A stretch of 64,000 nt of DNA from a virus. How positions within the stretch are numbered: the first letter of the stretch is position 1; the number at the start of each line of letters is the position of its first letter. The notes below the pieces were generated by a model, which was not told the DNA's origin, did no database searches, and saw nothing but the letters and a program-made list of their open reading frames with translations. The stretch is from IMG/VR virus record IMGVR_UViG_3300022700_000069, positions 1 through 64,000 of that record; one strand, 5' to 3'. Shown one piece after another: positions 16,409 to 62,075 of the stretch. A program made the translations under genes and the position numbers.

Positions 16409-16771
16409 ATGAAAAAATTAATTAATGATATTTTAAATTCTTTAGATAATTCGTTATTAAAAAAGGAATTTATTAGTAATAGTTCACAAAATTCATATAG
16501 CAATCACTGTTATATTGCTACTGAAGCATTATATCATTTATTAGATGAAAACACTAGAAAATTATATACACCATCAATATTAAAAGTTAATAATATTACA
16601 CATTGGTTTTTAAAAAATAAAAAAGATGGTAGTATCATTGATATAACAAAAGAACAATTTAACTTTGATTTAGATTATAGTAAATCTCAAAATAAATTCT
16701 TTTTAACACCATATCCATCGAAAAGAGCATTAATTTTAATTAATAGAGTATATGAAAAAAATTGTTGTTAA
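16409..16771 (+). CDS. Small protein with a Cys-His-Asp pattern (papain-like/YunG-like fold suspected)
   Basis: NHCYIATEALYHLL...THWFL...IIDITKEQF...FLTPYPSKRA; overlaps the next gene by 20 nt. Confidence 0.45.
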   Translation: MKKLINDILNSLDNSLLKKEFISNSSQNSYSNHCYIATEALYHLLDENTRKLYTPSILKVNNITHWFLKNKKDGSIIDITKEQFNFDLDYSKSQNKFFLTPYPSKRALILINRVYEKNCC

Positions 16772-18254
16772 TAAAACACTAATACTTTTTTTAAATATCA
16801 ATGATATGATATCATTGGATAAAGGTAATTTAAAAAAAATAAAAGATGAATATTTAAAAATATACGATAATTGTATTATATATAATTATTATAACATATT
16901 AAATCATAAGCAATTAATTAAAGATAAAATAAACAAATTAAAATTTAAAAATCAAAAAAGAATAAATGCAAGAGATTGTATTATAAAAATAATTGAATCA
17001 AAAGAAAAAAATTCGTTCTTAAATGTAAATCACATACAAGGAACTGATAAATCTCAAATTTACTATGGTGCATATCATAACAATGAATTAGTTTCAGTCA
17101 TGACATTTGATAACACTAAAGGTATTAACGGAGGAATGAAGAAGAACGAATATGAATTATCAAGATTTTCAATAAAAATTGGACTTATTATTGTTGGAAT
17201 ATTCAATAAAATACTAAAAAAATTCATAACTAATTATAAACCTAATAGAATAACATCATTTGCAGATTTAAATGTTGTTAATAAATATAATAACATTTAT
17301 TTAAATAATAATTTTAAAGTATCTAAAAATTTATCACTAGATTTTAAATATTTTTTTATTAATGGTGATAATTTATATCATAAATTAACCTATGGTAATA
17401 AGTTTAGAAAAAATCCTAAAATTAATGAAGATAAAAAAAATGAAATTATTGAAAATCTACATAAGTTTTGGGATTGTGGTAAAATTAAATATGAACTTCT
17501 TTTAAATAAAAACGGTACACCTATTTATGGTTTTATTTACATGATAAAAAATAAGATAAATAGTAAAATTTATATTGGACAAACATATAGAAACATTAAT
17601 AAAAGAATATATGAATATAAAGCTGCATGTAAATACAACAAATTCAATAATAAATATTTAGGCAATGCATTCAACAAATATGGGTGGGATAATTTTGAAT
17701 TTTCAATAATTGATACCGCAACATCAATCAATGGATTAAATGATAAAGAAATTTATTACATAAAAAAATATAATTCACACAATAAAAAATATGGTTATAA
17801 TTTACATTTAGGTGGTAGAAATGCAATTCCAAATAGTGAAACACTAAACAAAATGTCAAAAGCACATTTAGGTAAAAAGCAAACTCAAGAATGGGTTAAT
17901 AAAAGAATTGCAAAAGCTGGAACCGAAGATGCAAAAAAATATGGGAAGAAAAAAACTAAAGATGAGAGAGAAGAATTGAGTAAAAAGTCACCTAAATATT
18001 GGTCAGGTAAAAAAAGAAGTGATGAGACTAAAGAAAAAATAAGCAAAACAAAAAAAGAAAAAGGATTATCAGAACAACAAAAAAAGGCAATTTGTAAGAA
18101 AGTTTATAAAAAAAACATTACAACAAATAAAATTGAGGTTTTCAATTCAACTAAACATGCATCAACTAACGAAAATGTTAATCAATCCACAGTTTCAAGA
18201 TGGTGTAAAAATAATAAGATCGTTAATAATTTTCAATGGTTCTATAATAAATAA
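16752..18254 (+). CDS. GNAT/Mom-like domain fused to a GIY-YIG endonuclease with NUMOD3/NUMOD1-type DNA-binding motifs
   Basis: ARDC..FLNVNHIQG..ELVSVMTF..YELSRF..SFAD..WDCGKIKY, then FIYMIKNKINSKIYIGQT, SETLNKMSKAHLGKK, and a C-terminal HTH. Confidence 0.8.
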   Translation: MKKIVVNKTLILFLNINDMISLDKGNLKKIKDEYLKIYDNCIIYNYYNILNHKQLIKDKINKLKFKNQKRINARDCIIKIIESKEKNSFLNVNHIQGTDKSQIYYGAYHNNELVSVMTFDNTKGINGGMKKNEYELSRFSIKIGLIIVGIFNKILKKFITNYKPNRITSFADLNVVNKYNNIYLNNNFKVSKNLSLDFKYFFINGDNLYHKLTYGNKFRKNPKINEDKKNEIIENLHKFWDCGKIKYELLLNKNGTPIYGFIYMIKNKINSKIYIGQTYRNINKRIYEYKAACKYNKFNNKYLGNAFNKYGWDNFEFSIIDTATSINGLNDKEIYYIKKYNSHNKKYGYNLHLGGRNAIPNSETLNKMSKAHLGKKQTQEWVNKRIAKAGTEDAKKYGKKKTKDEREELSKKSPKYWSGKKRSDETKEKISKTKKEKGLSEQQKKAICKKVYKKNITTNKIEVFNSTKHASTNENVNQSTVSRWCKNNKIVNNFQWFYNK

Positions 18255-18337
18255 TAATAAAAAATTTTCAATATTTTTAAAATAATTTCCATTCTTATTA
18301 TCTAAAATAAGTATTTATTAATGTAATTTAATATACC

Positions 18338-18847
18338 ATGAAAAAAATTATATTGATGATATTATTCATCATTTCATTCATCTTTGTTTTTTCACAAAAT
18401 GGTGATATTCACGGTTTTATATTTAAAGACTTTGGTGAATGGTCAATAGATGTTGACAATAATAAAATTTCTGTATCAGCTTTTATTACTATTGAACAAA
18501 AAACAAAAAAATTAACATTTAATGAAATTGAATTAAAAAAACATTTTATAAAAAAAAGAAAATATGATACAATTAATAATTATAATATTATCTATATATA
18601 TAGATTATATTTAAAAAGTAATTCAATTTATAATGGTGAAAAAACAAATACTTGGATATATGGTGGTAGAGTTTATATTAATGGCATTGAAATAACAAAA
18701 GAAAAATTTCCAGAAGGTTTCTTAATTGCTGTTAAAACAACACCAACATTAATATATAAATATGAAACAAAATCAACAAAAAAAATAAATTTTTATATAA
18801 AATGGGATAAAGCCATTTATGAAAATAGAGAAATTAATAAAAATTGA
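18338..18847 (+). CDS. Secreted/periplasmic hypothetical protein
   Basis: Signal peptide MKKIILMILFIISFIFVFSQ; late motif at 18311. Confidence 0.6.
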   Translation: MKKIILMILFIISFIFVFSQNGDIHGFIFKDFGEWSIDVDNNKISVSAFITIEQKTKKLTFNEIELKKHFIKKRKYDTINNYNIIYIYRLYLKSNSIYNGEKTNTWIYGGRVYINGIEITKEKFPEGFLIAVKTTPTLIYKYETKSTKKINFYIKWDKAIYENREINKN

Positions 18848-18856
18848 ATATAAATT

Positions 18857-19261
18857 ATGTCAAATAACATTAATCAAAAAAATAATAAAATACTTGGCGG
18901 AAATACAATAATACAATTCACATTAAGGGGTTTTATAACAACTATATTTACGATTTTAGGTATATTTTTTGGTTTTTATAAATTAGTTATTCAACCAAGT
19001 ATAAATCAAACAGCAAAACATCAAAAAGAATTATATATTGAACAAAAAGAATATATTAATAATGAATTTGAAGAAGTAAAAAATGCAATTCAATTAAATA
19101 CTCAAGCAATAAATGCAGTTAATAATAGATTTAGGGATTTAAATGAATCTGTTAGAAAAATTGAAAATAGTAATGGTTCTTTTGGTTCTTTGACAGAACC
19201 TGAACAGTCATCAATAGATAATAATAATAATGATGATGACTTAGCTGATAAAAATAGTTAA
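18857..19261 (+). CDS. Single-TM coiled-coil protein (possible lysis accessory)
   Basis: GFITTIFTILGIFFGFYKLVI hydrophobic segment followed by heptad-like region. Confidence 0.45.
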   Translation: MSNNINQKNNKILGGNTIIQFTLRGFITTIFTILGIFFGFYKLVIQPSINQTAKHQKELYIEQKEYINNEFEEVKNAIQLNTQAINAVNNRFRDLNESVRKIENSNGSFGSLTEPEQSSIDNNNNDDDLADKNS

Positions 19262-19265
19262 AATA

Positions 19266-19580
19266 TTAATTATTATTTATTTCAATTTCTGTAACTTCAT
19301 GCATAAATGCTTTAATTATATCAAGTAATTCAATTTTTCGTATCATTGTATCATATAAATCTTTTGTTATTTTTTCAAAATTAATGTTATCAGTTTTTTC
19401 ATTCATTTTATAATACATTGTAGTTAATAATCTCCAATTATTTAAATTATTAATTTTAAATTTACAATGACCTTCAAATATTAATTTTTCATTAATAAGA
19501 TCAAATTTAACAACAATTTTCTTATTATTTTCATTATCTTTAATTTTAATATTTGCTATTTCAGCTATTGTATTTTCCAT
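19266..19580 (-). CDS. Hypothetical protein
   Basis: 104-aa ORF tightly packed downstream of the helicase. Confidence 0.6.
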   Translation of the reverse strand: MENTIAEIANIKIKDNENNKKIVVKFDLINEKLIFEGHCKFKINNLNNWRLLTTMYYKMNEKTDNINFEKITKDLYDTMIRKIELLDIIKAFMHEVTEIEINNN

Positions 19581-19590
19581 ATTTTAAATA

Positions 19591-22098
19591 TTATTGTTCT
19601 TCATCATTCCAATTATGATCATATATTAAATCAGTTTTTGCTCTTGTAATTGCAACATATTCAAGATTTTTTTCTTGTTTATATTGCCATTTTTTAGAAT
19701 TTGGAAATGGAATTAAATCTGGTCTTATAATAAAAACACGATTTGCTTCTAATCCCTTTGCCTTATGAATTGTACTTAGTACAATTCCAGTTAATTTATC
19801 AGTAAATATTGTTTTAATATTATGTTTGAGACTTTCAATAGTATCAGAAACTCTTGATAAAAATAATAATGTATTAACTTTATCTTGTAGTGCTACATAT
19901 CCTGTGTGTTCTTGAGGGTTAAGAATACCATTATTGTATAATTCTTTTTTAAATTTTTCAAGTTCATCTTCCCAATAATTAATTAATTGAGAAATTGTTT
20001 CAAAATTTTTTGTTAATTCTATTAATTTAATGCCAATATCACTTCCTTTAATAATGGCTTTTTTTTGTTGTGATAATAATTCAAAAAATAGTTTAATTAA
20101 TGGTGCTGTTGTTCTACAAAGAATAAAATCACCATTTTTAGCTTCATTAAGTACATCACCATCTCTAACAATACCTTCTGGTGCTTCTGGTAATGCTTTA
20201 ATATTTGGTACAATATTTTGAGCATGTTCAATTACTTTTTTTGAACATCTAAAAGAATATGAAAGTGGTAATATTTTGGTATTTTGAAAATTTTTGAACC
20301 AATTAAATGATCTTTCATCCGCACCCGAAAATCCATAAATTGTTTGAAAAAAATCTCCAACTCCAATTAATCTACCTTTATATTTTTTAGTATTTTTATC
20401 TCTTCTAAGCATTTTTTCAATCAATCTAATTTGACACCTATTTAAATCTTGTATTTCATCTACAAAAACATAATTTTGTGGAAATAACCATAATGAATTA
20501 TCCACTGCAGGAAGATATATCATATCAGTATAATCAAAAGTTTTCCTATCTTGAGTCATTGAATCAAGGATTTTTAAAATTCTTTTAATATCTTGGTCTT
20601 TTGTTAATGTAACTTCATATCTTTCAGCAATGAATGGTATATATTTTTTATCAGTTGTTAGCGATAATCTACACAAATTAACCATTTTTTTTATATCTTG
20701 AAAATATCTATATTTTTCTTCTTTGGATTTTAATTCTAAGTCTAAATTCCATTTTTTTGCTTTTTTTTGAATATGTTTATCTGCTTTAAATTCATCAAAT
20801 TGAATTTTATCACCATATTTTCTTTTGATTGCTGACATACCAAGACCATGTGATGTATAACATCTAACATATTCTGGTAATTTAGTTTTTAATTCTTCCT
20901 GAATATGTTTATTAAATGCCATAAACATAATATTTTTATCTTTAGGAATTAATTTAACCGCTTCTACTACAGTCGTGGTATTATGTGTTATGGTAAAATC
21001 ACCTAATAAAAATCTACCATTACCATCTAATGTAAAACCATAATAATTACCAGTACCAATATATTCAACTTTGAAACCAGTTCTTAATACTGATTTTTTT
21101 TGTTTTCTTGGTTTACATTTTTTTCTTGATAATAAAACTGGAACATTCTCAAACGATCCACTAATCGTAATATGCCAATATTTACCAGAAAATTTTAATG
21201 ATTTAATTTTTTTAGTAATTCCCTTTTTATATGCTGAAAATCCTAAACTTCTTGCAAGAAAAAGAATATCATCAGCAAATGATTTATATTTTGTAGCAAT
21301 CTCATAATATTTATGGTATTGATATCCATCTGAATCAATTATACCTGCAAATAATTTTAATCTATTATTATATGAATTAATTTTATATTCATTAGGTATG
21401 ATTAAATCACTATTATTATTAAAACATTTCTTAAATTCATCTCTTATTATATTATTAACCTTACGACCATTAAAATTAGGGGTTGTTAATGATACAGTTA
21501 TCAAATTTTTTTGATATTCGTTGAATTTAGGTGTAATATTATCATATTTAACATTTTTTAAATAATTTAAAATAGGTTTTTCATTAATATTAACCGATAT
21601 TCTAGGACTTCCATTAAATTTTGTACCATCACCTAACCAAAGACCTAATAAATAGGGGTCAATAATTACATCTTTTTTAGGAAAAGAAACCTCTTTTCTT
21701 TGAAGTCTTGCATACCTATAATTACCATTTCTATATTTAGGATAATTTATTTTATTTAATGGTATATCTAATAATTTTTTCTTTTGTTCATGATGATGAG
21801 TTAATATGTGTACATCATTACAAATCCAAGAATCACCCTTAACTGGAATTACTTTATATAACTTACCATTACCAATATTTGTATTTAATACCTTTCTTGG
21901 CATTGAATCATCACCCATAATCAAATCACCAATTTTTATATTTTGTACTTTTTTTATTGTACCATCATACATTAATATTGGTGTGTTTATACCTAAACAT
22001 TTTCCTGCTCCTGCATATGCTTCAATAAGAATATTCTCAGGTCTTTTTTTTATAAATTTAAAAATTTTTTCTTGTTCAGTTGTAGGTTTTAAATTCAT
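19591..22098 (-). CDS. UvrD/Rep-like superfamily 1 helicase with intein
   Basis: AYAGAGK/TTT Walker A, VFVDEIQDLN, VGDFFQTIYGFSGA, SFRCS, STIHKAKGLEA, YVAITRAK. Confidence 0.92.
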   Translation of the reverse strand: MNLKPTTEQEKIFKFIKKRPENILIEAYAGAGKCLGINTPILMYDGTIKKVQNIKIGDLIMGDDSMPRKVLNTNIGNGKLYKVIPVKGDSWICNDVHILTHHHEQKKKLLDIPLNKINYPKYRNGNYRYARLQRKEVSFPKKDVIIDPYLLGLWLGDGTKFNGSPRISVNINEKPILNYLKNVKYDNITPKFNEYQKNLITVSLTTPNFNGRKVNNIIRDEFKKCFNNNSDLIIPNEYKINSYNNRLKLFAGIIDSDGYQYHKYYEIATKYKSFADDILFLARSLGFSAYKKGITKKIKSLKFSGKYWHITISGSFENVPVLLSRKKCKPRKQKKSVLRTGFKVEYIGTGNYYGFTLDGNGRFLLGDFTITHNTTTVVEAVKLIPKDKNIMFMAFNKHIQEELKTKLPEYVRCYTSHGLGMSAIKRKYGDKIQFDEFKADKHIQKKAKKWNLDLELKSKEEKYRYFQDIKKMVNLCRLSLTTDKKYIPFIAERYEVTLTKDQDIKRILKILDSMTQDRKTFDYTDMIYLPAVDNSLWLFPQNYVFVDEIQDLNRCQIRLIEKMLRRDKNTKKYKGRLIGVGDFFQTIYGFSGADERSFNWFKNFQNTKILPLSYSFRCSKKVIEHAQNIVPNIKALPEAPEGIVRDGDVLNEAKNGDFILCRTTAPLIKLFFELLSQQKKAIIKGSDIGIKLIELTKNFETISQLINYWEDELEKFKKELYNNGILNPQEHTGYVALQDKVNTLLFLSRVSDTIESLKHNIKTIFTDKLTGIVLSTIHKAKGLEANRVFIIRPDLIPFPNSKKWQYKQEKNLEYVAITRAKTDLIYDHNWNDEEQ
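20980..21999 (-). mobile_element. Intein (340 aa) with LAGLIDADG endonuclease in the helicase P-loop
   Basis: CLGINTP...CNDVHIL...YLLGLWLGDG...FAGIIDSDG...FLLGDFTITHN / T. Confidence 0.95.
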
Positions 22099-22100
22099 AT

Positions 22101-22352
22101 TTATCCTTTTATTTCAATTTTTGTTTCTTTGGGAATTAATTTACTATCATTACTATGATCCATTTCAGGATATTCAATTGATGTTGTTAAATATTTTCTT
22201 CCATCTAATGATAGTGTTTTAATAAGATCATTAAATGATGTTTTTTCTTTTTCTACAATTTGTTGTACAAATCCATTTATTAATTCAATATATTTTTCTT
22301 GTGAAAGATTGATAAAATTAACTGTTAGTGTTACTTCTACATTGTGTATCAT
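22101..22352 (-). CDS. Hypothetical protein (start probably ATG 22352)
   Basis: ORF packed between 22357-22818 and the helicase. Confidence 0.5.
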   Translation of the reverse strand: MIHNVEVTLTVNFINLSQEKYIELINGFVQQIVEKEKTSFNDLIKTLSLDGRKYLTTSIEYPEMDHSNDSKLIPKETKIEIKG

Positions 22353-22356
22353 ATTA

Positions 22357-22818
22357 TTATTTTTTTTGCCAATTTTCGTTATCAATACCATCAACTAATT
22401 CATAAACATTCATATCTTCAAGTACTAATACTTTAAGACCAACTATTCTTTTAAAAATTTTTCCTTTATGAATAATTCCCTCGTAGTTTAACTTATCACG
22501 ATCTTTTATTGTATCAACAGTTATATGGTAATTTCTATGTATTGTTATTTCAGCTTCACCCATCACTTCCATTTGTTGTTTTAATAAAATAGCTAATTCA
22601 TCTGAAATAACTTCAAGAGTTTCAAATGTTGATTCTAATGCTTTTATTTGATTTTCTGGTAAATCATTTTTTCTTAATTCAATAAGATTATTTATAACAT
22701 ATCGAGATAATTCTAATGCCATAAATTTATCTTCTGGTTTGTCTTCATATGATTCAGGAATATTTATATATGGTCTTCCTTCATCATTTAATTTAATTTC
22801 ATATTCAAATTTCAACAT
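22357..22818 (-). CDS. Hypothetical protein, first gene of the helicase operon
   Basis: 153 aa; TATATTTG host-type element at 22845-22852 (-). Confidence 0.65.
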   Translation of the reverse strand: MLKFEYEIKLNDEGRPYINIPESYEDKPEDKFMALELSRYVINNLIELRKNDLPENQIKALESTFETLEVISDELAILLKQQMEVMGEAEITIHRNYHITVDTIKDRDKLNYEGIIHKGKIFKRIVGLKVLVLEDMNVYELVDGIDNENWQKK

Positions 22819-22859
22819 AATAAAGTATTTATAATAAATAAAGACAAATATAATATATT

Positions 22860-23978
22860 ATGACGTTAATTACAACAGTTGAGAAAAATAAATTATTTAC
22901 AAAAGTAAAACATGAATTAGGTTACCCTTTAAGACCTTTTGAAATTAAGGATGACATGATGATGTCATATCTGGAAATGGTAATTGAAGATTATTCATCA
23001 TTATTGAATAATTGGTTAATACATCAACAATGGGTTAGTGTTGAAGGTTTAAGTAAAGAAAATTCTGATTTTTTATCGGCATTTACAACTAAATCAACCA
23101 ATTATATGGAATCATTTACATATGCATATTCAAAACAAATTGGGTATGGTACAAATGCTCCTGCAAAAAATAATTGGGAATTGAAACGTGATTATATTAT
23201 CACATCTGCTAATACTCAACACTATATTATTCCTGCAAACAGAGAAGTAAATGAAGTTTTATGGGAAACACCACCTGAAATTGATCAGGGTTTAGTTGAT
23301 CCATTTTCATTAAATGCATGGAGTCCCGGTATGCATGGTTGGTCATATTTAGGTCGTCCTGCTATGTACGTTCAACCAACATTTTCAACACTATTAACAG
23401 CACAAGATCGTAGAATGAAACAAAGAGTCTTACAATCATTATTAACATATAGAATTACTGGTCTTGGTGATGGTCGTAAATTATTACATTTATACCCTGT
23501 ACCGGGAAGCAGACAAGAAATAAATAATCGTTGGGGTAAGCATTATGCTGGTAGAAAAGTTTGGTATTGGTATTATGATACAAACAATGTAGGTAGAGAT
23601 AAATGTTTAGAAGAAAATGATGATACTGTTAAATTACCTTCTGATCCACCTGTAAATGTATTAAAATGGGAGAAAATGAATGAATCAGCACGTAGACAAA
23701 TTCGTGATCTTCTTATTGCTAAAGTGAAAATGGTAATTGGTGGAATTCGTGGTTTTTATTCTGGTGAATTAGGTGTTACTGAAAAACAATTATCAATGGA
23801 TTATCGTCATTTACTTGATGAGGGGAAAGATTTAAAAGAAGCAACAGAAAAGGATATTACCGATTTATTAGATAAAATATCACAAGCTAATTTAACTGAA
23901 GAAAGAGCGAAAATTGCTGAAAATGTAAATAATGAACGTAGGTATCAACCACCTATGTTCCCTATAATTGCAATTTAA
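22860..23978 (+). CDS. Neck/head-completion protein (T4 gp13-like)
   Basis: N-terminal KHELGYPLRPFEI; C-terminal IRDLLIAKVKMVIGGIRGFYSG..MDYRHLLDEG..PPMF; late motif at 22825. Confidence 0.75.
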   Translation: MTLITTVEKNKLFTKVKHELGYPLRPFEIKDDMMMSYLEMVIEDYSSLLNNWLIHQQWVSVEGLSKENSDFLSAFTTKSTNYMESFTYAYSKQIGYGTNAPAKNNWELKRDYIITSANTQHYIIPANREVNEVLWETPPEIDQGLVDPFSLNAWSPGMHGWSYLGRPAMYVQPTFSTLLTAQDRRMKQRVLQSLLTYRITGLGDGRKLLHLYPVPGSRQEINNRWGKHYAGRKVWYWYYDTNNVGRDKCLEENDDTVKLPSDPPVNVLKWEKMNESARRQIRDLLIAKVKMVIGGIRGFYSGELGVTEKQLSMDYRHLLDEGKDLKEATEKDITDLLDKISQANLTEERAKIAENVNNERRYQPPMFPIIAI

Positions 23979-25758
23979 GGATAAACTTCATATTACCAGA
24001 ATCATATATTCTATAATACCCCCTCTCGCTCATGATTTGATGTTCTGTTTTTTGAGAATCAAATCCTTCTTTAATTAGAACATCTTTTCTAAATTTAAAT
24101 CGATGATGTAAAATATATTCATGTGGTTTAAAATACCAATAGTTGGGTTTTGTATATTTAACAAAATCAAAACCCAATTTTCTATATAATTCCCCATTTG
24201 AATATCTTCTATCTGCATAAGATATTATAAATTTAGGTTCATATGTTTTTATAAAATGTTTTAATAATTTACTAGCACCACCAATAACTTGTGTATTTAA
24301 TTTATTACAAAATCTAAGCATTTCGTATCCATCGTTAACATTTTTTGATCCTAATGATTTTCTTAAATTCCCGAATGTCATAATGGAAACTAATTCATTA
24401 TTATAGATTAATCCAAGTTTAATTTTAGAGTTAACATTACCCTGAATATGATTTTCATTTAAAAATTTTTTACTTGTTTGGGGATTAATATTAATTATTG
24501 TACATTTTCTTGCATAGATTTTATTTTCAATTATATTTAACTTACTTTTTATTATTGATTTAACAATTTTCTTTTTATTTTTCCATTCATTTTCAAAAAT
24601 ATGTAATAATTGAATATTATTTTTTTCACATAGCTCTGTTTTATTTAAATGATAATTTTTATTAACATTAATAGTAGAATGCCAATATAAACCATTATAT
24701 TCAATACCCACATTATTATTAGTGATAAAAATATCAATTTCTTTATTATTAATTTTTATTTTATTACCCTCATATTGAAGTTCATTTGTAATAAAATTCA
24801 ATATTTCTTTTTCGGATATTGAATTGTTTGATGAAACAGGATTACATATAGTACAAATATCTTTTATACCATACATTAATCTATTTTTTAATACATAATA
24901 ATTAATATCAAATTCATCATGATTATCACAAAAATTTTTTATTTTAAATGTTTTTTTATTTAAATCATATTCAATTTGATTTAAATTAATATTTAATTTT
25001 TTTGTATAATCATTTAATCGTTTTTTTATTATATTATTTTTAAATTCTTGAGATTGTGAAAAATGTTCAACACCATATTTATTAAGTATTGTTTGTTTCC
25101 GTTTATTGTTAATTTTACTAATTTCATCAGGTGTTTTATTATTATATGTTTCATTAACTTTTTTAGAGAAATATGTGGATTTTGAGTATACATCAACACC
25201 ATATTTATTAAGCATTGTTTGTTTTGCTTTTTCCCTATTATTAATATTTTTTTCCCCAAAATTTGTTATACTTGTTTTAATTGCTTTTTTTCTATTATTA
25301 TAATATTCATTCCCATATTTTTCTCTTTTTGTTTTTTTTATTTTATCAATATTAATGAAATTTTCATTATTATATTTTTCCTTTTTAGTTTTTTTCGATT
25401 TTTTTTTAACCTCACTAATTTTCATGGGATTATCAACCCCATATTTTTTAATTAATAATTTTTTATTTTCTTCAATTAAATTTTTATCAGTGTTTCTACA
25501 CTTTATTGAACAATATTGATAATAACCCCTCGAATAGCTAATAAAATTTACTCTATTATTACAATTTTTATTTTTACACATAGGTTTCATATTAAATTCA
25601 TTAATATACCAATACAATTTTTCATACCAATTATCAACTTCTCTAATATTAATTATTTTGTGATAATCATCCGGGTAATGTTTTTTTATATATAATTTTC
25701 TAGTTTTAACACCAGATTTATTATTAGTTTTTAAATTTTTCTCTAATTCTCTTTTCAT
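23962..25758 (-). CDS. Hef-like free-standing endonuclease: KYGV repeats, Vsr/DUF559-like nuclease, GNAT/Mom-like domain
   Basis: EIDIF..GIEYNGLYWHS..YHLNKT..LLHIFENEW; IYARKC..NHIQG..YEMLRFCNKLNTQVIGGASKLL..SYADRRYSNGELYRKLGF..IYDSG. Confidence 0.82.
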   Translation of the reverse strand: MKRELEKNLKTNNKSGVKTRKLYIKKHYPDDYHKIINIREVDNWYEKLYWYINEFNMKPMCKNKNCNNRVNFISYSRGYYQYCSIKCRNTDKNLIEENKKLLIKKYGVDNPMKISEVKKKSKKTKKEKYNNENFINIDKIKKTKREKYGNEYYNNRKKAIKTSITNFGEKNINNREKAKQTMLNKYGVDVYSKSTYFSKKVNETYNNKTPDEISKINNKRKQTILNKYGVEHFSQSQEFKNNIIKKRLNDYTKKLNINLNQIEYDLNKKTFKIKNFCDNHDEFDINYYVLKNRLMYGIKDICTICNPVSSNNSISEKEILNFITNELQYEGNKIKINNKEIDIFITNNNVGIEYNGLYWHSTINVNKNYHLNKTELCEKNNIQLLHIFENEWKNKKKIVKSIIKSKLNIIENKIYARKCTIININPQTSKKFLNENHIQGNVNSKIKLGLIYNNELVSIMTFGNLRKSLGSKNVNDGYEMLRFCNKLNTQVIGGASKLLKHFIKTYEPKFIISYADRRYSNGELYRKLGFDFVKYTKPNYWYFKPHEYILHHRFKFRKDVLIKEGFDSQKTEHQIMSERGYYRIYDSGNMKFILKLQL

Positions 25759-25884
25759 AGATTTTATTTTTATATAAATATACTATTAATTATTATTTAA
25801 TAACACCAAATATACCAAAAAAATATTAAACAATAAAGTATTTATAAATGTAATTCTAATTTAATAAACTGATAGAATTAAAAT

Positions 25885-26439: not shown

Positions 26440-26454
26440 AAAATTTAAATATAA

Positions 26455-40332: not shown

Positions 40333-40340
40333 AAATAAAT

Positions 40341-40372
40341 AAAAAAAGGGGTCGATATCGACCCCTTTTTTT
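40341..40372. terminator. Bidirectional intrinsic terminator
   Basis: a7-ggggtcgatatcgacccc-t7 perfect palindrome between convergent genes. Confidence 0.92.
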
Positions 40373-40373
40373 A

Positions 40374-42011
40374 TTATGGTATTAATTCATATTTCTTCAA
40401 TCCACAATCATATATTCTAGGCAGATTATTATCTAACATTTCTTTATGTTCTGTTTTATTTGTAATACCCAATTTATTTTTTCTAAAATTAAATTTATGA
40501 TATTTTGTTATATTTCTATAATCGCAATACCAATAACTTGGTTTAATATCACCCTTAAACTCAAACCCAATTTTTTGATATAAATTACCATTACTATATC
40601 TTCTATCTGCAAATGTTATGATTTTTAATGGTTTATATTTTTTAATAAAAAAATTCAAAAGTTTACTAGCACCACCAATAACATTAGTATTTTTTTTATT
40701 TGAAAATCTATTTAATGTATAATTATTTTTATATTTTTTAAACCCCATAACTGAAACCAATGTATTATTATAATATAGTCCAATTTTTACACTACTATTA
40801 GTTTCACCAAGAATGTGATTTTCATTTAAAAACGACTTATATTCATTAACATTAATTTTATAAATTTTACACTTTCTACCATATATTTTATTTGGCGTTA
40901 AATTTAATTTATTCAATAATATCGATTTTACAATCTCATTTTTGTATACCCATTCATCTTCAAATATTTGAATTAATTGAATACCCTGTTTATTACAAAA
41001 ATTCAATTTATTTAAATGATATTTATTATCCTTAAAATATTCAGAATGCCAATATAAACCATTAAATTCAATAGCAATTTTATAATCTGGTAAATAAAAA
41101 TCTAATTCATAGGGTTTTATTATTTTTTTATCGTTTCTCTGATATTTAATATTTTGTTCATCTAAAAATTTTGATATCTCTAATTCATAATTAGAAATAT
41201 TTGGTGAATATGGTAAATATTTAACTGATAATTCTCTATTTTCGTTTAATCTTATAATTAATAATGATCTTGGAATATCAAATATATGACCATCCGGATG
41301 TTTTATTGTTAATACATTATCATGGTTAATACTAATTAATTCATATTTCTTTTTTTCTAATCTATTTTTTAATTTATCATTTAATGTATCATAGAATTTA
41401 ATTCTATTATTATAATTCTCGTCTTTATAAATTTCTTTTTTTGTTTGTTTTATTTTATTATAGTTATTATAATTTTCATTATTATATTTTTCTTTTTTTG
41501 TCTTTTTAACTTTATTATTAATAATTTCCCAATTATTCCAATATTTATTATTTCTATTTTCCTGTATTTTTTTTTGAAAATTTGTTAATTTAAATAGGCT
41601 ATCAACACCATATTTATTCTTTAATACTTTTTTACTTTTATTAATTCGTTTTTCTTTATTTTCTGGTCTACTATTCCATTTTTTTCTACATTTTTCAGAA
41701 CAAAAATTACGTTTATATTTTTTACGTTCTTCAAATTCATTACCACATTCTAAACAATATCTTTTTTCTATTGCTTTTTTATGTTTAGCATTTGCAGAAC
41801 ACTTATATGAACAATATTTTTTATTTTCTTTAATTTTTGAAGTAAATTCATTACCACAATTTTCACATGGTTTAGTAATATAATATTTCAAGTCTTGTTT
41901 TTTTCTTAATTCCCGTTTACAATCAGATGAACAAGTCTTTTTTTCTTTACCCTTTCTTACTTCAAATTCATTACCACAATTTTTACATATTAATTTTATA
42001 AATGTTGCCAT
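40374..42011 (-). CDS. Hef-like endonuclease: three Zn-ribbon repeats, Vsr/DUF559-like nuclease, GNAT/Mom-like domain
   Basis: CxxCGNEF..CSxxC three times; YELDFY..AIEFNGLYWHS..IFEDEW; VIGGASKLL..TFADRRYSNGNLYQKIGF..IYDCG. Confidence 0.82.
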   Translation of the reverse strand: MATFIKLICKNCGNEFEVRKGKEKKTCSSDCKRELRKKQDLKYYITKPCENCGNEFTSKIKENKKYCSYKCSANAKHKKAIEKRYCLECGNEFEERKKYKRNFCSEKCRKKWNSRPENKEKRINKSKKVLKNKYGVDSLFKLTNFQKKIQENRNNKYWNNWEIINNKVKKTKKEKYNNENYNNYNKIKQTKKEIYKDENYNNRIKFYDTLNDKLKNRLEKKKYELISINHDNVLTIKHPDGHIFDIPRSLLIIRLNENRELSVKYLPYSPNISNYELEISKFLDEQNIKYQRNDKKIIKPYELDFYLPDYKIAIEFNGLYWHSEYFKDNKYHLNKLNFCNKQGIQLIQIFEDEWVYKNEIVKSILLNKLNLTPNKIYGRKCKIYKINVNEYKSFLNENHILGETNSSVKIGLYYNNTLVSVMGFKKYKNNYTLNRFSNKKNTNVIGGASKLLNFFIKKYKPLKIITFADRRYSNGNLYQKIGFEFKGDIKPSYWYCDYRNITKYHKFNFRKNKLGITNKTEHKEMLDNNLPRIYDCGLKKYELIP

Positions 42012-42121
42012 AATACTGAAATTTAATTGAAACCAACTAATAATAAATACAAATATAATAGAAAAAATAAAAAAATCAAGTATTTATAAAAAAATAATAA
42101 AATTAATTAAAATTCAATATT

Positions 42122-53431: not shown

Positions 53432-53453
53432 CCAAGATAAAATCTTGGTTATT
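53427..53453 (+). terminator. Hairpin after the chaperone genes, immediately followed by a late motif (53455)
   Basis: aataaccaagat-aaa-atcttggttatt. Confidence 0.7.
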
Positions 53454-53480
53454 TGTATTTATATAAAAGATTAAAATAAA

Positions 53481-56039: not shown

Positions 56040-56068
56040 AAAAAACAATTATTTTTTTTAAAAAAATA

Positions 56069-56120
56069 TTGATATTCTAAAAAATTTTTTGTAACTTTGC
56101 ACACAGCAATTTTAGCTTTG
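56069..56120 (+). promoter_or_regulatory. Tandem Bacteroidota-type promoters with no adjacent ORF
   Basis: TTG(56069)-N20-TAACTTTG(56092-56099) and TTTG(56088)-N21-TAGCTTTG(56113-56120). Confidence 0.55.
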
Positions 56121-56488
56121 CATAAAACAAAGTAAATATATATAAAAAAAAGTTTTTTTAAAAAAAAAGTTTTTTCAATTGCAAAAATTCCTGTTTTTTT
56201 ATCATTCTGATAAAAATCAAAGTCACAAATAATTTGTATTTAACTTGTACCAATTTAAATAAAATCATTTGATATTAAAGGGGCATATTATATCTAATTT
56301 TTTCTCCAAAAAAATTTTATACAAAAATAAAAATTTTTTAATGATTATTATTAATTTAAAATAATTTACCTTCAACAAGAATGATATGATATTTTTTTTT
56401 ATTCCCCCGTTAAAATTAAGACAGTTTATCCCAATGTAAAAGTACAATATTTAAAATTAATGTGCAAGTATTTATATAAAAAATATAA

Positions 56489-59400
56489 ATGGGAAGATTA
56501 AAAGATGCATTAAAACCGAGTAATATTTGGTCTGGAACTCAATTTTCAGGATTAAATGAAGATTTAAATGAAAATGATACACCACCTTCTCGTTTACTTA
56601 ATAATTCAAATGAATTAAGAAATTCATTAAAATCAAGAAATTTATATACTGAATTTACTCAATATCCATTACAACCTAATGATAGAGAAAGAATTGTAAA
56701 TGCTGTATCTGGAATTTTAAATGGTATTACACCATTTAATAGTACAAATTTAAATAATACTGCAATTGGTAGATTAATATCAACACCAACAACACCGTTA
56801 ACAGATATTGGTTTGCTCATGTTAGGTAAACAATTTACGCAAAATTTTAAATCAAATGCATTACAGCAACTTATTCCCAATATTAATTTAAAAAATGCAT
56901 TTGATGGAAATTCAGATACAAAATTATTTCAAGAAAATATAAATTTTAGTATAACAGAAAGAGAAGATGCTGGAAATTTTCAAAATTTTCTTGAAGATTT
57001 TTTTGGTTATAATCCAAATAGAGAAAACCCATTTAGAAAAAATGCATCAAATGCAGAATATATATTAAATACAGGTGTTGGTCAATTAGACTTTCTTTTT
57101 GGAAATAGTGCTAAAGATGATAGTGGTGGTTTAAATAAAAATATTTATAAACCATATAAAATAGAATATTTTAATGGTGCAGAACGTAGTGGAAATAATA
57201 TAGGAAGTAGAGAAAGTTCATTATCTGGTAAAGAATGGTTTAATTTTACTAATTATGATTTTTATAAATATTTACCAATAAATGTTGATTTTAATTCTGA
57301 ATCTCGTGCTAATTCAGAAATGAAAGATGGATATATTACAAGTACACCTGCTGAAGTTGAAGATTTAAGAAATCAAGAATATGCACCAGATTTAGATTAT
57401 ATTAATTCATATTTTGGGAGAACAAAAAATGCAAGATTATTTAATTTAGTTAATGATTTAGAAGAAAGACCTGAAACAGAATTTGATGATAATATAAAAA
57501 ATAGACTTGTTTGGGGTCGTGATGGTATATCAGCTAAAGCAAATGAAAGAATATCAAAATTAAGAGGTGTAAATGTCCCATCATTTGATTTACAAGATAC
57601 TAAATTTAATTATAATATATATACTGGTTTATTAGAATATACACGTAATTTATTAAATGTAAGTGAAGGTCAATTAGTTGATCAAACTAAAAAAATATAT
57701 AAAAATGGTGATAGTATTGATAGTGCTAATGGGTCTAAATTATGGAAAGCACCTGAATCATCATTAAATCGATTTGCAGGTAAGAAGGGTATTAGACAAC
57801 ATTCAATTTTAGATCAATATGATAGATTTGCAAAAGCAATTAGATTTGATGGTAATGAAGTATATGGTGGTAATGAAAATTCTGTTATACATAAATCAGT
57901 TTTACCTAAAATTCATCCAATATTAGATAATGAAGGTAATGTTGATAACACAAATTTGATGTTTTCACTTGAGAATCTTGCTGTTGTTGCAATTGATGGT
58001 GATGGTGAGTATGGTATTATTGATGATGAATATGGTACTCAAATACCAAGTTGTGAGGTCGGTCCGTTTAATGGTCGTATGATGTGGTTTCCACCATATG
58101 CAATTTCATTAAATGAAACAGCAAGTGCTAATTTTGAATCAACTGTAATGGTAGGTCGTAATGAACCAATATATACATATATGCATTCTGAAAGATCAGC
58201 AGTATTAACATTTACCATGCTTGCTGATTATCCAGAACAATTAAAAAATTATATAAAAAATGGTGAATATAAAGATATTGGTGAATTTTTTGCATTTGGT
58301 GGTCCTGAATTTGAACAACCAACATTTTTAAATAATTCAGAAGAAAAACAAAGAAAAAATGAAGAAGAAATAACAAAAATAGAAGGACCAAATAAGAAAA
58401 AGAAAACACCATTAAATTTAACATCATTTAATATATCATTTCCTAATGATATACCAGCAAAAAATAATATTAATTCTAGTGTTATTGATAAGTTATATCT
58501 TGATTATAGATATGAAATTATAGAAGATTTAAATAGTACTATTGGTACTTCAAATGGTTTAAATAGTGATATTTACATATTAAAAGGTGTTGATTTAGCT
58601 TCTGTACCACTAACATTTAATCCACCTGAAGGGTTTAGTCAATCAAACGCTGAATATGATGAAACAGAGAGACCCTTAGATGATACATTAAAAGATGCAT
58701 TTAGTGATCCTGAAAATGTTAATTTTTATGAAATTGATATTGTTGGAAGTGCAACAGCATTATATACACCAAGTATAAAAGATGATGAAGATGATGCTGA
58801 AGCATATAATAAATCAATTGGTTTAAGAAGAGCAAAAGTTGCAGAATCATTTATTAAAGCAAGAATAAAGAAAATATTTCCAGATACTGCTAGTGAAATA
58901 TTAGATGGTTTAAATTTTAATTTAAGATCAGAAGGTGCACCTAATCAAGAATATAATACTGTTGAATCCAAAAATGATTTGGGTGCAAAATTACAAAGAT
59001 CAGCAAAAATAGAAATTGTTGAACGTGAAACAACACCTGATCCTAAACAACAAAATACAACGTCAGATGAACAAAGAGACATAAATGAATTAAAAAAGGA
59101 AAATCAAGGGTTACAAAATGCAAAAAATGTTCAGGGAAAAAATTCAAAATCTGATTGCATAATGAATGAAAGAGAATCAAGTGATATTTCTGATAATGAT
59201 GATGGAATTATGGGGAATGGTAGATCACTATTAAAAAATAAATTTTATCCGGCATTTCATTCACAAACACCTGAAGATTTACATAAAAGATTAACATTTT
59301 TACAACAATGTGTGAGACAAGGTTCTGCTATTAGATCAACACCGGAAGTTGATGAAAATGGTATAAGACGTGTAAAAAATTCAGCATTTGGTCGTCAACC

Positions 59401-59818
59401 AGTTTGTATTTTAAGAATTGCAGATTTTTTTAATACAAAAGTGATTATTGAATCAGTTAATATTGATTATGATGATACTGTTTGGGATACAAATCCAGAA
59501 GGTTTTGGTATGCAACCGATGATTGCATATGTAACATTAAATATGAAAATTTTAGGTGGTCAATCACTTAAAGGACCAATTGATGCACTTCAGAATGCTG
59601 TATCATTTAATTATTATGCAAATTCAACATATACAAAGAATGGTTTATATAAAACACCAACAAAAGAAGCAGAAAAACAAGAAACATATATAAATGGTGT
59701 TTTAGATAAAAAATCACAAGATGCACAAGATGAATTTAATAATAAAACAACAGAGAGCTTTCTTGAAGATAAAACAAATAGAAATATATATAATTATAAT
59801 GAAGATGATAGATTTTAA
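56489..59818 (+). CDS. Baseplate tube-initiator-like protein (gp48/gp54-like) with inserted OmpA-like domain
   Basis: WFPPY..GRNEPIYTY..ERSAVLTF and PVCILRIADFFNTKVIIESVNIDYD..W..PMIAYVTL flank EIDIVGSAT..YNKSIGLRRAKVAESFI..QRSAKIEI. Confidence 0.6.
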   Translation: MGRLKDALKPSNIWSGTQFSGLNEDLNENDTPPSRLLNNSNELRNSLKSRNLYTEFTQYPLQPNDRERIVNAVSGILNGITPFNSTNLNNTAIGRLISTPTTPLTDIGLLMLGKQFTQNFKSNALQQLIPNINLKNAFDGNSDTKLFQENINFSITEREDAGNFQNFLEDFFGYNPNRENPFRKNASNAEYILNTGVGQLDFLFGNSAKDDSGGLNKNIYKPYKIEYFNGAERSGNNIGSRESSLSGKEWFNFTNYDFYKYLPINVDFNSESRANSEMKDGYITSTPAEVEDLRNQEYAPDLDYINSYFGRTKNARLFNLVNDLEERPETEFDDNIKNRLVWGRDGISAKANERISKLRGVNVPSFDLQDTKFNYNIYTGLLEYTRNLLNVSEGQLVDQTKKIYKNGDSIDSANGSKLWKAPESSLNRFAGKKGIRQHSILDQYDRFAKAIRFDGNEVYGGNENSVIHKSVLPKIHPILDNEGNVDNTNLMFSLENLAVVAIDGDGEYGIIDDEYGTQIPSCEVGPFNGRMMWFPPYAISLNETASANFESTVMVGRNEPIYTYMHSERSAVLTFTMLADYPEQLKNYIKNGEYKDIGEFFAFGGPEFEQPTFLNNSEEKQRKNEEEITKIEGPNKKKKTPLNLTSFNISFPNDIPAKNNINSSVIDKLYLDYRYEIIEDLNSTIGTSNGLNSDIYILKGVDLASVPLTFNPPEGFSQSNAEYDETERPLDDTLKDAFSDPENVNFYEIDIVGSATALYTPSIKDDEDDAEAYNKSIGLRRAKVAESFIKARIKKIFPDTASEILDGLNFNLRSEGAPNQEYNTVESKNDLGAKLQRSAKIEIVERETTPDPKQQNTTSDEQRDINELKKENQGLQNAKNVQGKNSKSDCIMNERESSDISDNDDGIMGNGRSLLKNKFYPAFHSQTPEDLHKRLTFLQQCVRQGSAIRSTPEVDENGIRRVKNSAFGRQPVCILRIADFFNTKVIIESVNIDYDDTVWDTNPEGFGMQPMIAYVTLNMKILGGQSLKGPIDALQNAVSFNYYANSTYTKNGLYKTPTKEAEKQETYINGVLDKKSQDAQDEFNNKTTESFLEDKTNRNIYNYNEDDRF

Positions 59819-59820
59819 TT

Positions 59821-60135
59821 ATGCCAAGAGAAGATTATAATAGATATGCAATATTAGAAAATGATGATGGTTCAGTGGATAGAATGCCATTTGTTAATAT
59901 TTCTGAGCGTGCTAGTGATAAATATGAATATTGGAATATAACTTTTAGTCGTATGGATAAATTAGCACAAAAATATTATGGAAATCCTTTTTATGATTTT
60001 ATTATATTATATGCAAATCCTGAATTTATTTCACAATTTGATATACCTGATGGTTCATTAATAAGAATACCATTCCCTCTTTCACAAGTAAAATCAGAGT
60101 ACGAGGCGAAATTGGAACAAATAAAAAATCAATAA
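59821..60135 (+). CDS. LysM-like baseplate wedge protein (gp53/gpX-like)
   Basis: RMDKLAQKYYGNP..IILYANP..IPDGSLIRIP. Confidence 0.8.
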   Translation: MPREDYNRYAILENDDGSVDRMPFVNISERASDKYEYWNITFSRMDKLAQKYYGNPFYDFIILYANPEFISQFDIPDGSLIRIPFPLSQVKSEYEAKLEQIKNQ

Positions 60136-60194
60136 TATTATTGTTTTTTTCAAAAATTTAGTATTTATTTGTAGTTCACAATTAATGTTTTATT

Positions 60195-62075
60195 ATGGAA
60201 AAAGCAATAAAAAAAATATTAAATAATAAGAAATATATTGAATCACATATAAAAAAAACATATCCAGAATTATATAATAAAATTATTTTATTTAACAAAA
60301 ATTTGGATATATCATGGTTAAATAAATTATATAATTATATATATAAAATTAAAAGTAAAAATTGTGAATATTGTGGTAAATCATTAAAATTTAAAGAAAA
60401 TTTTTCTATTGGTTATGGAAAATACTGTTCAAAAAAATGCACTTCTAGGGCAACAAGAGATAAAGTAAAACAAACTAATTTAAATAAATATGGGGTTGAA
60501 TTTCCATTACAAAATGAAAAAATATTAAATAAAGTAAAACAAACTAATTTAAATAAATATGGGGTTGAATCAACATTATTAAATAAAAACGTAAAAAATA
60601 AAATAAAACAAACTAATATAGAAAAATACGGTGTTGAAAATCCATTTCAATCAAAATTAATAAGAAATAAAATAAAACAAACTAATTTAAATAAGTATGG
60701 GGTTGAAAATATATTTGAAAATGAAGAAGTGAGAAAAAAAATTAATGTAAAGTATTGGAATAAAACAAATGACGAAAGAAAAAAAATTGTTCAAAAAGCA
60801 AAACAAACTAATATAAATAAATATGGTGTTTCAACAGTTTTATTATTGGAAGAAAATAGAAATAAACAAAAAAAGATTATTAAAAAAAAGTATGGAGTTG
60901 AATTTGCATTACAAAATCCTGAAATTTATAAAAAGAGTCGAGAAAAAATAAGAAAAAAATATGAAGTAGATAATATATCACAATCTTTAATAATTAAAAA
61001 AAATAAAAAAAATAAATTTTTAATTAATTGGGCAAAAAAATTAAATATTTCCATAAATAATATAAAATATGATAATGGGATTTTCATTATTAAACAATAT
61101 TGTAAAAATCATAATAGTTTTAAAATTAATTATGATGATTTATATAATAGGTTTAATATGGGGGTTATTAATATTTGTACTAAATGTAATCCCATTAATA
61201 AACAATCGAAAATTAAGGAAAGGGAAATTGCTGATTTCATTGATAATGATTTAAATTTGAAATATGATAGAAATAATCGAAAAATATTAAATGGAAAAGA
61301 AATTGATTTTTATTTTCCTGAATATAAATTAGGTATTGAATTTAATGGTTTATATTATCACTCAAATAAATTCATTACAAAAAAATATCATCTGAATAAA
61401 ACAGAGTTTGCTGAAAAACAAAATATACAATTATTACATATTTTTGAAGATGAGTGGATATTTAAAAAAGATTTAATTAAATCAATAATTAAAAGTAAAT
61501 TAAATATTTTTGATAAAAAAATATATGCTCGTAAATGTGAAATTAGAGAAATTAATGATAATCAATTGGTTCGTGAATTTCTTGAAAGAAATCATTTACA
61601 GGGGTTTGTTGGTTCTAAATATAAAATTGGATTATTTCATAATGATGAATTAATTTCATTAATGATTTTTAGTAGAAAAAGAATTGCTTTGGGAAGTAAA
61701 AATAATAACAATAATGAATTTGAATTATTACGTTTTTGTAATAAATTAAATACACAGGTAATTGGTGGAGCAAGTAAATTATTAAATTATTTTGTAAAAA
61801 TTTATAAACCAAAATCAATTTTAACTTTTGCTGATAGAAGATATAGTAATGGTAAATTATATCAAAGATTAGGGTTTAAATTCATAAAAAAAACTAAACC
61901 AAATTATTGGTATTTTAAGAAAAATAAATTGATCAGATATCATAGATTTAATTTTAGGAAAGATATTCTTGTTAAAAAGGGGTATGATTCTAACAAAACC
62001 GAAAAACAAATAATGACTGAAAATGGATATTATTACATATATGATTGTGGTAATAAAAAATATGTGTTAAATTAA
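60195..62075 (+). CDS. Hef-like endonuclease: 23-aa KQTNLxKYGVE repeats, Vsr/DUF559-like nuclease, GNAT/Mom-like domain
   Basis: EIDFY..GIEFNGLYYHS..IFEDEW; FELLRFCNKLNTQVIGGASKLL..TFADRRYSNGKLYQRLGF..IYDCG. Confidence 0.82.
   Translation: MEKAIKKILNNKKYIESHIKKTYPELYNKIILFNKNLDISWLNKLYNYIYKIKSKNCEYCGKSLKFKENFSIGYGKYCSKKCTSRATRDKVKQTNLNKYGVEFPLQNEKILNKVKQTNLNKYGVESTLLNKNVKNKIKQTNIEKYGVENPFQSKLIRNKIKQTNLNKYGVENIFENEEVRKKINVKYWNKTNDERKKIVQKAKQTNINKYGVSTVLLLEENRNKQKKIIKKKYGVEFALQNPEIYKKSREKIRKKYEVDNISQSLIIKKNKKNKFLINWAKKLNISINNIKYDNGIFIIKQYCKNHNSFKINYDDLYNRFNMGVINICTKCNPINKQSKIKEREIADFIDNDLNLKYDRNNRKILNGKEIDFYFPEYKLGIEFNGLYYHSNKFITKKYHLNKTEFAEKQNIQLLHIFEDEWIFKKDLIKSIIKSKLNIFDKKIYARKCEIREINDNQLVREFLERNHLQGFVGSKYKIGLFHNDELISLMIFSRKRIALGSKNNNNNEFELLRFCNKLNTQVIGGASKLLNYFVKIYKPKSILTFADRRYSNGKLYQRLGFKFIKKTKPNYWYFKKNKLIRYHRFNFRKDILVKKGYDSNKTEKQIMTENGYYYIYDCGNKKYVLN
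60460..60980 (+). repeat. 69-bp-period coding tandem repeats
   Basis: 42-bp identical copies at 60460-60501 and 60529-60570, with degenerate copies following. Confidence 0.85.

Follow-up and report, generated by a model that had tools for sequence, protein, structure and literature searches.

Hef and Hef-like free-standing endonucleases are established components of phage genomes (PMC3322345; PMC2988022; PMC3296691). The named set includes Hef of the T-even phage U5, the families PHROG 3339 and PHROG 559, F-LimIII, VII, VIII and X of LIMEstone1, and members in PA5oct and AR9/PBS1. Here we compare with these systems four genes, called hef1 to hef4, that lie in the first 64 kb (hereafter the window) of the 102-kb IMG/VR record IMGVR_UViG_3300022700_000069. 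Their products share a domain related to the Mom protein of phage Mu, and the four genes are very probably free-standing homing endonuclease genes, selfish and mobile, of an uncultured T4-like jumbo phage. Campylobacter phages of the CP81/NCTC12673 type harbor between 9 and 12 places per genome that match the shared domain. In the Dickeya phage LIMEstone1, the Hef-like genes adjoin baseplate wedge and tail tube genes (PMC3296691).

Hef-type enzymes have been placed in the EDxHD family, whose prototype, I-Bth0305I, is intron-encoded, binds DNA through NUMOD and helix-turn-helix (HTH) elements and is devoid of a Mom-related domain (PMC3239194). The chemistry of Mom was established in 2026: the donor is Gly-tRNA(Gly), and the target is the N6 of adenine in duplex DNA (PMC13219725). 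Residues H58, R111, S124, D149, R151 and Y159 of Mom were highlighted by superposition and mutagenesis, the S124A variant being catalytically dead and the activity of R151A undetectable (PMC13219725). Iyer, Anantharaman, Krishnan, Burroughs and Aravind (2021) predicted in jumbo phages a "Mom domain fused to REase-fold endoDNase" (REase, restriction endonuclease), which they interpreted as a system where momylation shields the phage and the nuclease is turned on host or superinfecting DNA (PMC7824862). The cut-and-protect idea, which a preliminary description of the window had offered for its four genes, is therefore not new for Mom-nuclease fusions, having already been published as a prediction (PMC7824862). 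In the literature, we found no experimental test of that prediction or of the role of the Mom-related domain in these nucleases.

The record has a CheckV completeness of 34%, and the G+C content of the window is approximately 24%. Relatives were retrieved via four flanking genes, and the contents of each slot were mapped; their contigs are 320-365 kb long, on which ground the uncultured phage is regarded as a jumbo phage. Its capsid and sheath are T4-like, with the capsid protein showing only ~33% identity to its best match in the phage record collection.

Family Membership and Architecture of the Four Genes

The four open reading frames (ORFs) were found exactly where the preliminary description had placed them, namely hef1 at 16752-18254 (+ strand, 500 residues), hef2 at 23962-25758 (- strand, 598 residues), hef3 at 40374-42011 (- strand, 545 residues) and hef4 at 60195-62075 (+ strand, 626 residues). 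Their assignment to the Hef-like free-standing endonucleases is borne out by matches of all four to phrog_3339, a "homing endonuclease" family, with expectation values (E) of 1.9e-124 for hef2, 1.6e-110 for hef3, 2.9e-138 for hef4 and 1e-35 for hef1, the latter match covering the shared domain only. At the DNA level, the matches are solely to Hef-like genes of Campylobacter and Bacillus phages, and at the protein level they come from phages of Campylobacter, Bacillus (AR9/PBS1), Pseudomonas (PA5oct), Acinetobacter and Dickeya and are annotated as Hef-like homing endonucleases. The shared domain is present in 403 phage records, nearly all of them annotated as Hef-like or homing endonuclease, with at most 55% identity to any phage record; 17,686 representative clusters match it, mostly at the C-terminus of proteins of 450-650 residues. 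Thus, the window genes belong to the same family as the Hef-like set by profile and BLAST, have the same layout of array, Vsr-like core and C-terminal Mom-related domain, and likewise form a set of several free-standing copies that neighbor virion and replication genes. They differ from that set in that their sequences are new and that one copy carries a GIY-YIG nuclease. Decay into pseudogenes was ruled out, as each of the four frames is uninterrupted and, measured against family members, of full length.

The common domain, said to span about 190 residues, aligns over ~200 residues with 45 invariant columns. When the copy-4 domain was searched against the whole 102-kb record, exactly four places were found (E = 3.9e-133, 1.8e-82, 4.2e-52 and 3.1e-19), and the last and weakest of these values identifies copy 1 as the diverged one. 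The domain layout first proposed holds for the N-termini of copies 2-4, but not for copy 1, in which the domain occupies the N-terminal part and a GIY-YIG nuclease comes after it. In hef2, hef3 and hef4 the order of the parts is a DNA-reading array, a Vsr-like nuclease core and the C-terminal Mom-related domain, and the array differs from gene to gene, as had been noted. Counting of repeats and motifs by regular expressions and by reading of the translations gave approximately five KYGV-type repeats for hef2, three CxxC...CxxxC zinc-ribbon-type motifs and approximately three KYGV-type repeats for hef3, and approximately seven KYGV-type repeats with one CxxC...CxxxC motif for hef4; Pfam DUF7487 was found in copies 2 and 4. 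On the - strand, the KYGV/DUF7487 array of hef2 occupies approximately 24931-25581, its nuclease 24550-24813 and its Mom-like domain 23971-24570. The last 17 nucleotides (nt) of this gene (23962-23978) extend into the 3' terminus of the convergent gene at 22860-23978, and only there is the stop codon reached. For hef3, also on the - strand, the three zinc-ribbon-type motifs lie at 41688-41987, the nuclease at 40905-41189 and the Mom-like domain at 40383-40937. The array of hef4, with its single zinc-ribbon-type motif, is found on the + strand at approximately 60357-60989, followed by the nuclease at 61290-61481 and the Mom-like domain at 61470-62069.

The relationship of the nuclease core to I-Bth0305I is indicated by the match of the family profile to the nuclease domain of the latter (3r3p, E = 3.9e-5). 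Searched by sequence against PDB chains, hef4 returned nothing useful. The cores of hef3 and hef4 read ExD...ExNG.YxH...FEDEW and have counterparts of the E, D, H and D residues of the prototype, unlike hef2, in which N replaces the last acidic residue. The resulting FENEW motif is shared by hef2 and its three same-site orthologues (L177, L179 and L241), while the D of FEDEW is found in all 101 of the other matched representatives. Because it has been kept across diverged orthologues, the FENEW variant is probably tolerated, and the hef2 enzyme may be a nickase or have a changed metal use.

A Vsr-like core is absent from hef1. The gene encodes a degenerate Mom-like domain (residues 55-250, nt 16914-17501, + strand) and a GIY-YIG nuclease (residues 260-345, nt 17529-17786, + strand; PF01541, E = 9e-9, 36 bits against a cut-off of 22.6), followed by a basic tail with a sub-threshold NUMOD3 match. 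Its GIY-YIG part also matches the "homing endonuclease" families PHROG 314, 7168 and 5123. Like SegA-G of T4 and I-TevI, hef1 thus combines a seemingly intact GIY-YIG domain with a basic C-terminal tail, and it is free-standing 3' of the capsid gene; unlike them, it has an additional, degenerate Mom-related domain at its N-terminus and often a small YunG-like gene upstream. Hence, three of the four genes are Hef-type, with a Vsr-like nuclease of the EDxHD family, and the fourth joins a degenerate Mom-related domain to a GIY-YIG nuclease. No record of the 50,697-record phage collection covers the hef1 architecture to 80%, and dozens of metagenome clusters align with it over its full length.

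Occupancy of the Insertion Sites in Relatives

The genes flanking the four insertions differ in how readily they are recognized. The major head protein beside hef1 (phrog_138, E = 4e-67) and the tail sheath beside hef3 (phrog_23, E = 6e-64) were verified, the putative wedge gene at 59821-60135 has a weak match (phrog_7145, E = 2.4e-7), and the putative neck gene at 22860-23978 is without a match in Pfam or PHROG. At all four sites, empty or otherwise occupied slots were found among the relatives, in agreement with the expectation that the genes would be patchily present rather than fixed in the core genome.

The nearest relative, IMGVR_UViG_3300038954_000192, has core proteins that are 95-99% identical to those of the window. 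At the second site it has no hef2, and its flanking genes are coupled (TAATATG; L162:6100-6125). The window has at this position a 1.9-kb hef2 insert whose ends lie immediately behind the stop codon and immediately ahead of the following ATG, and the insertion thus splits a gene pair that is translationally coupled in the empty allele. At the sheath site, approximately 60 of 80 relatives are without a detectable Hef homologue in the gap between the sheath and tube genes, which is then ~100-800 nt long, and typically ~500; the remaining ones have Hef genes in either orientation, sometimes in two copies. The nearest relative possesses a hef3 orthologue (L003:8828-10459) with 78% protein identity, compared with 95% for the flanking sheath and 100% for the tube protein. 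The endonuclease gene either changes at a much higher rate than the genes around it or has been replaced by a related copy. Seven relatives possess both genes that flank the fourth site, and a Hef gene is absent there from all of them.

The contents of the capsid site also vary. In the nearest relative, it is occupied by another endonuclease gene (L082:6824-8470, + strand) that has the shared GNAT-like domain without GIY-YIG, an HTH match and a ROS/MucR-type zinc finger (Pfam E = 3e-7). This gene looks like another DNA-reading head joined to the same chassis. In other relatives, the slot is empty or contains a hef1-type gene or a gene combining a true Pfam Mom domain with GIY-YIG. The latter fusion, found downstream of the capsid gene in L085:6770-8227 (+ strand) and in approximately 40 protein clusters (P0353-P0393), has a full-length Pfam Mom match of 87 bits that includes the C-terminal part of Mom, and its GIY-YIG domain is ~60% identical to that of hef1; in L085, the residues of this Mom domain that correspond to H58 and R151 are E and A, respectively.

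In a mixed infection, the array of such an enzyme would place the nuclease on the gene-less allele of a related phage, at or near the neighboring conserved virion gene. The break would then be repaired from the gene-carrying genome, and the endonuclease gene, its promoter and flanking markers would be copied in the process.

Fold of the Shared Domain and Conservation of Mom Residues

A structure model of the domain, built on 50 sequences, has a predicted local distance difference test (pLDDT) value of 93.9. The GNAT fold that had been proposed for it, of the Mom kind, was recognized by Foldseek, which gave 94 matches in the PDB at E ≤ 1e-3. The best of them was Mom of phage Mu (8bv8, E = 5e-8, 193 columns), with many GNAT acetyltransferases ranking next, and VIA-align comparisons with GNATs yielded Z values of 13-14 over ~130 residues. 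At the sequence level, alignment by hhalign of the family profile with the Mom-family profile had a probability of 90.7% and an E value of 1.3e-6, with ~23% identity over 128 aligned columns. The Pfam Mom family (PF25680, cut-off 27.1 bits) matched the hef2 domain with 32.0 bits and the hef3 domain, just under the cut-off, with 26.3 bits; for the hef4 and hef1 domains scanned alone no Pfam Mom match was reported. Mom appears only when the domains are scanned alone, as full-length Pfam scans show none. The NHIQG, ELxRF, GGAS, ADRR and LY motifs align with H58, R111, S124, D149, R151 and Y159 of Mom. Since Foldseek, profile and residue alignment all point to Mom, the assignment of the GNAT fold is right.

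The domain resembles Mu Mom (PF25680, 8bv8) in its fold, in the insertion before the last strands and, in copies 2-4, in the six residues. It differs in being fused to nucleases, where Mom stands alone, in the loop around S124 and in the incomplete residue set of copy 1. The S124 loop reads G-G-A-S, as in the CoA (coenzyme A)-binding motif A of ordinary GNATs, and N-S-E-S in Mom. In the model, the insertion before the last two strands has the conserved basic residues R156, R159, R163 and K164. The hhalign alignment ends at approximately residue 181 of Mom, and the essential HTH-like insertion of Mom (~175-209), its dimer contact W48 and its C-terminal tail are left unaligned.

The six Mom residues are conserved to different degrees. 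All of them are kept in hef2, hef3 and hef4. In hef1, N is found at the positions of both S124 and R151. Substitutions of this kind are found across its lineage, which is still conserved: among 18 hef1-type ORFs, the R151 position is N in all of them and the S124 position in 11. Of 151 sampled global representative domains, 62 (41%) have the complete set and 59% an incomplete one, with R151 kept in 58%, S124 in 81% and D149 in 81%; a basic residue is present at 150 or 151 in 84% of the sampled domains. Across all 228 aligned domains, H58, R111 and Y159 have counterparts in 99%.

Possible Roles of the Mom-Related Domain

As to what the Mom-related domain contributes to these nucleases, the sequences offer evidence in both directions. 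We tentatively favor, at somewhat less than even confidence, a role in which it mainly engages DNA, by holding the target or by flipping or reading a base, with Mom-type modification not being required. This role is suggested by the near-universal retention of the pocket residues H58, R111 and Y159 and by the conserved, basic character of the insertion between the last strands. Several observations weigh against this reading, or against the homing scheme in which it is set. Each protein has a separate DNA-reading array, and an additional, purely DNA-binding domain would not obviously be needed. Copies 2-4 keep the complete Mom residue set, which speaks against a non-catalytic domain, and together with the frequent basic residue at 150 or 151 it fits a pocket under selection for chemistry. 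The FENEW motif may mean that the cutting activity of hef2 is altered. Lastly, the homing mechanism is a prediction for an uncultured phage and draws on family membership and genomic context.

The strongest competitor, which we regard as unlikely but worth serious consideration, is a single-chain cut-and-protect enzyme. The domain of copies 2-4 would be an active acyl- or aminoacyl-transferase modifying adenine at or near the recognition site of the same protein, such that modified resident genomes would be spared and unmodified arriving relatives cut, according to a Type IIG logic applied at one site. This possibility was predicted by Iyer et al. (2021; PMC7824862), whose systems, by their description, have the same domain pairing, are found in the same kind of phage and are given the same protect-self and cut-others reading. 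It would account for the six residues retained in copies 2-4, for the hef2 domain scoring above the threshold of Pfam Mom itself and for the prevalence of a basic residue at 150 or 151. In this phage group, Mom-family domains are joined moreover to two unrelated nuclease folds, Vsr-like and GIY-YIG, the latter occurring with a full-length Mom domain in relatives such as L085, and this favors a functional link to DNA cutting. Since free-standing genes insert beside their target and not inside it, self-cutting would also be a real cost. On the other hand, only 41% of the sampled domains keep the six residues, and the hef1 lineage has lost R151 throughout and S124 in 11 of 18 members while the domain itself has been retained. 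A modifier and a nuclease fused in one chain and sharing one specificity could not distinguish self from rival when the mixed infection is simultaneous. Hef of phage U5, according to what Sandegren and colleagues reportedly found in 2005, also cleaves the DNA of its own phage, which argues against built-in immunity. Furthermore, two parts that matter in Mom, the HTH-like insertion and W48, find no aligned counterpart, and the G-G-A loop, absent from Mom, means that the donor could differ; it leaves open the use of an acyl-CoA donor in place of the Gly-tRNA of Mom.

A more specific form of this proposal is marginally less likely still, namely that each of copies 2-4 would be an active transferase aimed by its own array at a single site, and thus a restriction-modification unit made of one chain and serving one site. 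Strictly Mom-like, self-protecting modification is possible but not favored, because copy 1 and 17 related ORFs are without at least one of the two essential residues and only 62 of 151 representatives keep all six. The earlier suggestion that the domain marks or protects self DNA thus goes beyond what can be read in the window, where nothing demonstrates it and where hef1 has no counterparts of S124 and R151.

In a third scenario, which we consider improbable, the domain would act on a substrate other than DNA, such as an aminoacyl-tRNA or a protein, or would pair two chains for a double-strand break by the Vsr-like nuclease. Mom is a dimer whose monomeric W48A form is inactive (PMC13219725), and I-Bth0305I couples dimerization to cutting (PMC3239194), both of which are consistent with pairing. 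With regard to other substrates, charged tRNA is the substrate of GNAT toxins, and the closest cores in VIA-align are those of protein N-acetyltransferases such as RimI and Naa (Z ~14). However, hef1 joins the domain to a GIY-YIG nuclease, and homing endonucleases of the GIY-YIG kind, I-TevI for example, function as monomers, which weighs against a role in chain pairing. A homodimer prediction for two domain copies, run without controls, gave a score of 0.01 relative to a mark of 0.42 and is uninformative either way.

Least probable, by a small margin, is a restriction-like weapon that would attack host DNA or that of unrelated superinfecting phages while the entire phage genome carries Mom-type marks: the terms in which Mom-REase fusions of jumbo phages were predicted (PMC7824862) and the presence of several copies with different arrays in one phage are in its favor, but the genes behave in a site-specific manner (single intergenic slots by conserved genes, presence or absence in near-identical relatives, differing occupants), cleavage by the prototype Hef has been described close to its own locus, in nrdB (PMC3322345; PMC2988022), and the long DNA-reading arrays suggest long, rare targets. 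In this respect, the site-specific, patchy insertion and the Hef family membership of the window genes depart from the restriction-like view of Iyer et al. and point to homing endonucleases.

Promoter-Like Motifs and Terminators

The preliminary description had assigned to the four genes a host-type -7 element, TATATTTG, with a near match at hef4, and to three of them a late motif, which is (G/C)TATTTAT. The elements are located where it indicated, except that the late motif at 25774 is only a near match. To evaluate position, a motif was counted as start-proximal if it preceded a same-strand ORF start by no more than 60 nt, a condition that holds for only 2.6% of positions. Across the window, TATATTTG is found 15 times compared with 17.8 expected, without overall excess, but 5 of the 15 are start-proximal, three of these being the sites of the hef1 cassette, hef2 and hef3. 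The late motif is found 33 times compared with 22.8 expected, and 21 of the 33 occurrences are start-proximal. The T4 late box TATAAATA shows neither an excess (34 found, 34.9 expected) nor a preference for starts (only 3 of 34 start-proximal on the forward strand), and a generic sigma-70 scan revealed no excess of promoter-like sites. The raw counts of TATATTTG and TATAAATA had suggested that the promoter motifs are chance occurrences; the positional test reversed this for TATATTTG and (G/C)TATTTAT. Both motifs are strongly position-specific in this phage. At the hef genes they lie 26-48 nt upstream, and each of the four genes has its own promoter-like motifs.

Throughout the window, 21 ORF starts are preceded at a distance of 13-58 nt by a same-strand (G/C)TATTTAT, with examples on the + strand at 1418, 4737, 12114, 12933, 18311, 22825, 31741, 37502, 42453, 52271, 53455 and 56468. 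It is thus a strong candidate for the main, probably late, promoter element of the phage. In sequence, the motif closely resembles the T4 late box in reverse-complement form.

Each insertion has its own arrangement of such signals. A two-way terminator hairpin with a 13-pair stem and a T run lies 3' of the capsid gene (16342-16371, both strands), and the hef1 cassette begins directly behind it, with TATATTTG at 16373-16380 (+ strand), 28 nt upstream of the start of o16409 and within a sigma-70-like match, TTGGAA-17-TATATT. The spacer brought in with hef2 (25759-25884) contains TATATTTG at 25807-25814 (- strand), the near match to the late motif at 25773-25780 (- strand) and an outward-facing GTATTTAT at 25838-25845 (+ strand), 39 nt before the displaced gene o25885, whose expression the latter element may restore. 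Between the sheath gene and hef3 there is a palindromic terminator hairpin of 17 pairs (40338-40375), assigned by the scan to the - strand after hef3, and we infer that it also serves the convergent sheath gene. Upstream of hef3, GTATTTAT at 42043-42050 and TATATTTG at 42050-42057, both on the - strand, are 31 and 38 nt from the start, respectively, and GTATTTAT at 60161-60168 (+ strand) is 26 nt from the start of hef4; the late motif is exact at 42043 and 60161.

Neighboring Genes

Directly upstream of hef1 and overlapping it by 20 nt is o16409 (16409-16771, + strand), a gene for a YunG-like protein of 120 residues. Its assignment follows from an Atlas feature score of 0.97 and a structure TM (template modeling) value of 0.84, with a weak Pfam YunG match (E = 0.018). 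A YunG-like homologue directly upstream of a hef1-type gene was found in 11 related loci (L092, L116, L127, L129, L140, L142-L145, L156 and L114), and in L114 the whole YunG-hef1 cassette is inverted and located elsewhere. That o16409 and hef1 represent one frameshifted gene was ruled out by the two-ORF layout in these 11 diverged loci and by the occurrence of hef1-type genes without o16409. In other Atlas clusters, YunG domains are joined to UDG-like, Ada zinc-binding and FRG domains, a hint that the YunG-like protein acts with damaged or modified DNA bases.

Directly 3' of hef4, inside the region of baseplate and tail genes, is a gene of a glycosyltransferase family (62083-62835, + strand; Pfam Glyco_tranf_2_5, E = 2e-26).

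Implications

Hef-type homing endonucleases are widespread, and the Mom-nuclease fusion had been described before, so that the sequence finding as such is ordinary. The window adds to the family four new members, clean empty-site alleles, a conserved FENEW variant and a copy in which a degenerate Mom-like domain is joined to GIY-YIG. It also offers a natural contrast within one genome, with three copies that have the complete Mom residue set and one degenerate copy on a different nuclease, and the empty-site alleles mapped in close relatives, among them those of L162 for hef2, L014 for hef3 and L244 for hef4, could serve as cleavage substrates. As Hef-type enzymes are among the commonest selfish nucleases of phages, the role of their Mom-related domain matters generally. 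Should copies 2-4 turn out to be one-site units, each would mark its resident target and cut the unmarked copies in later-arriving relatives, and immunity and homing would then be combined in one polypeptide.

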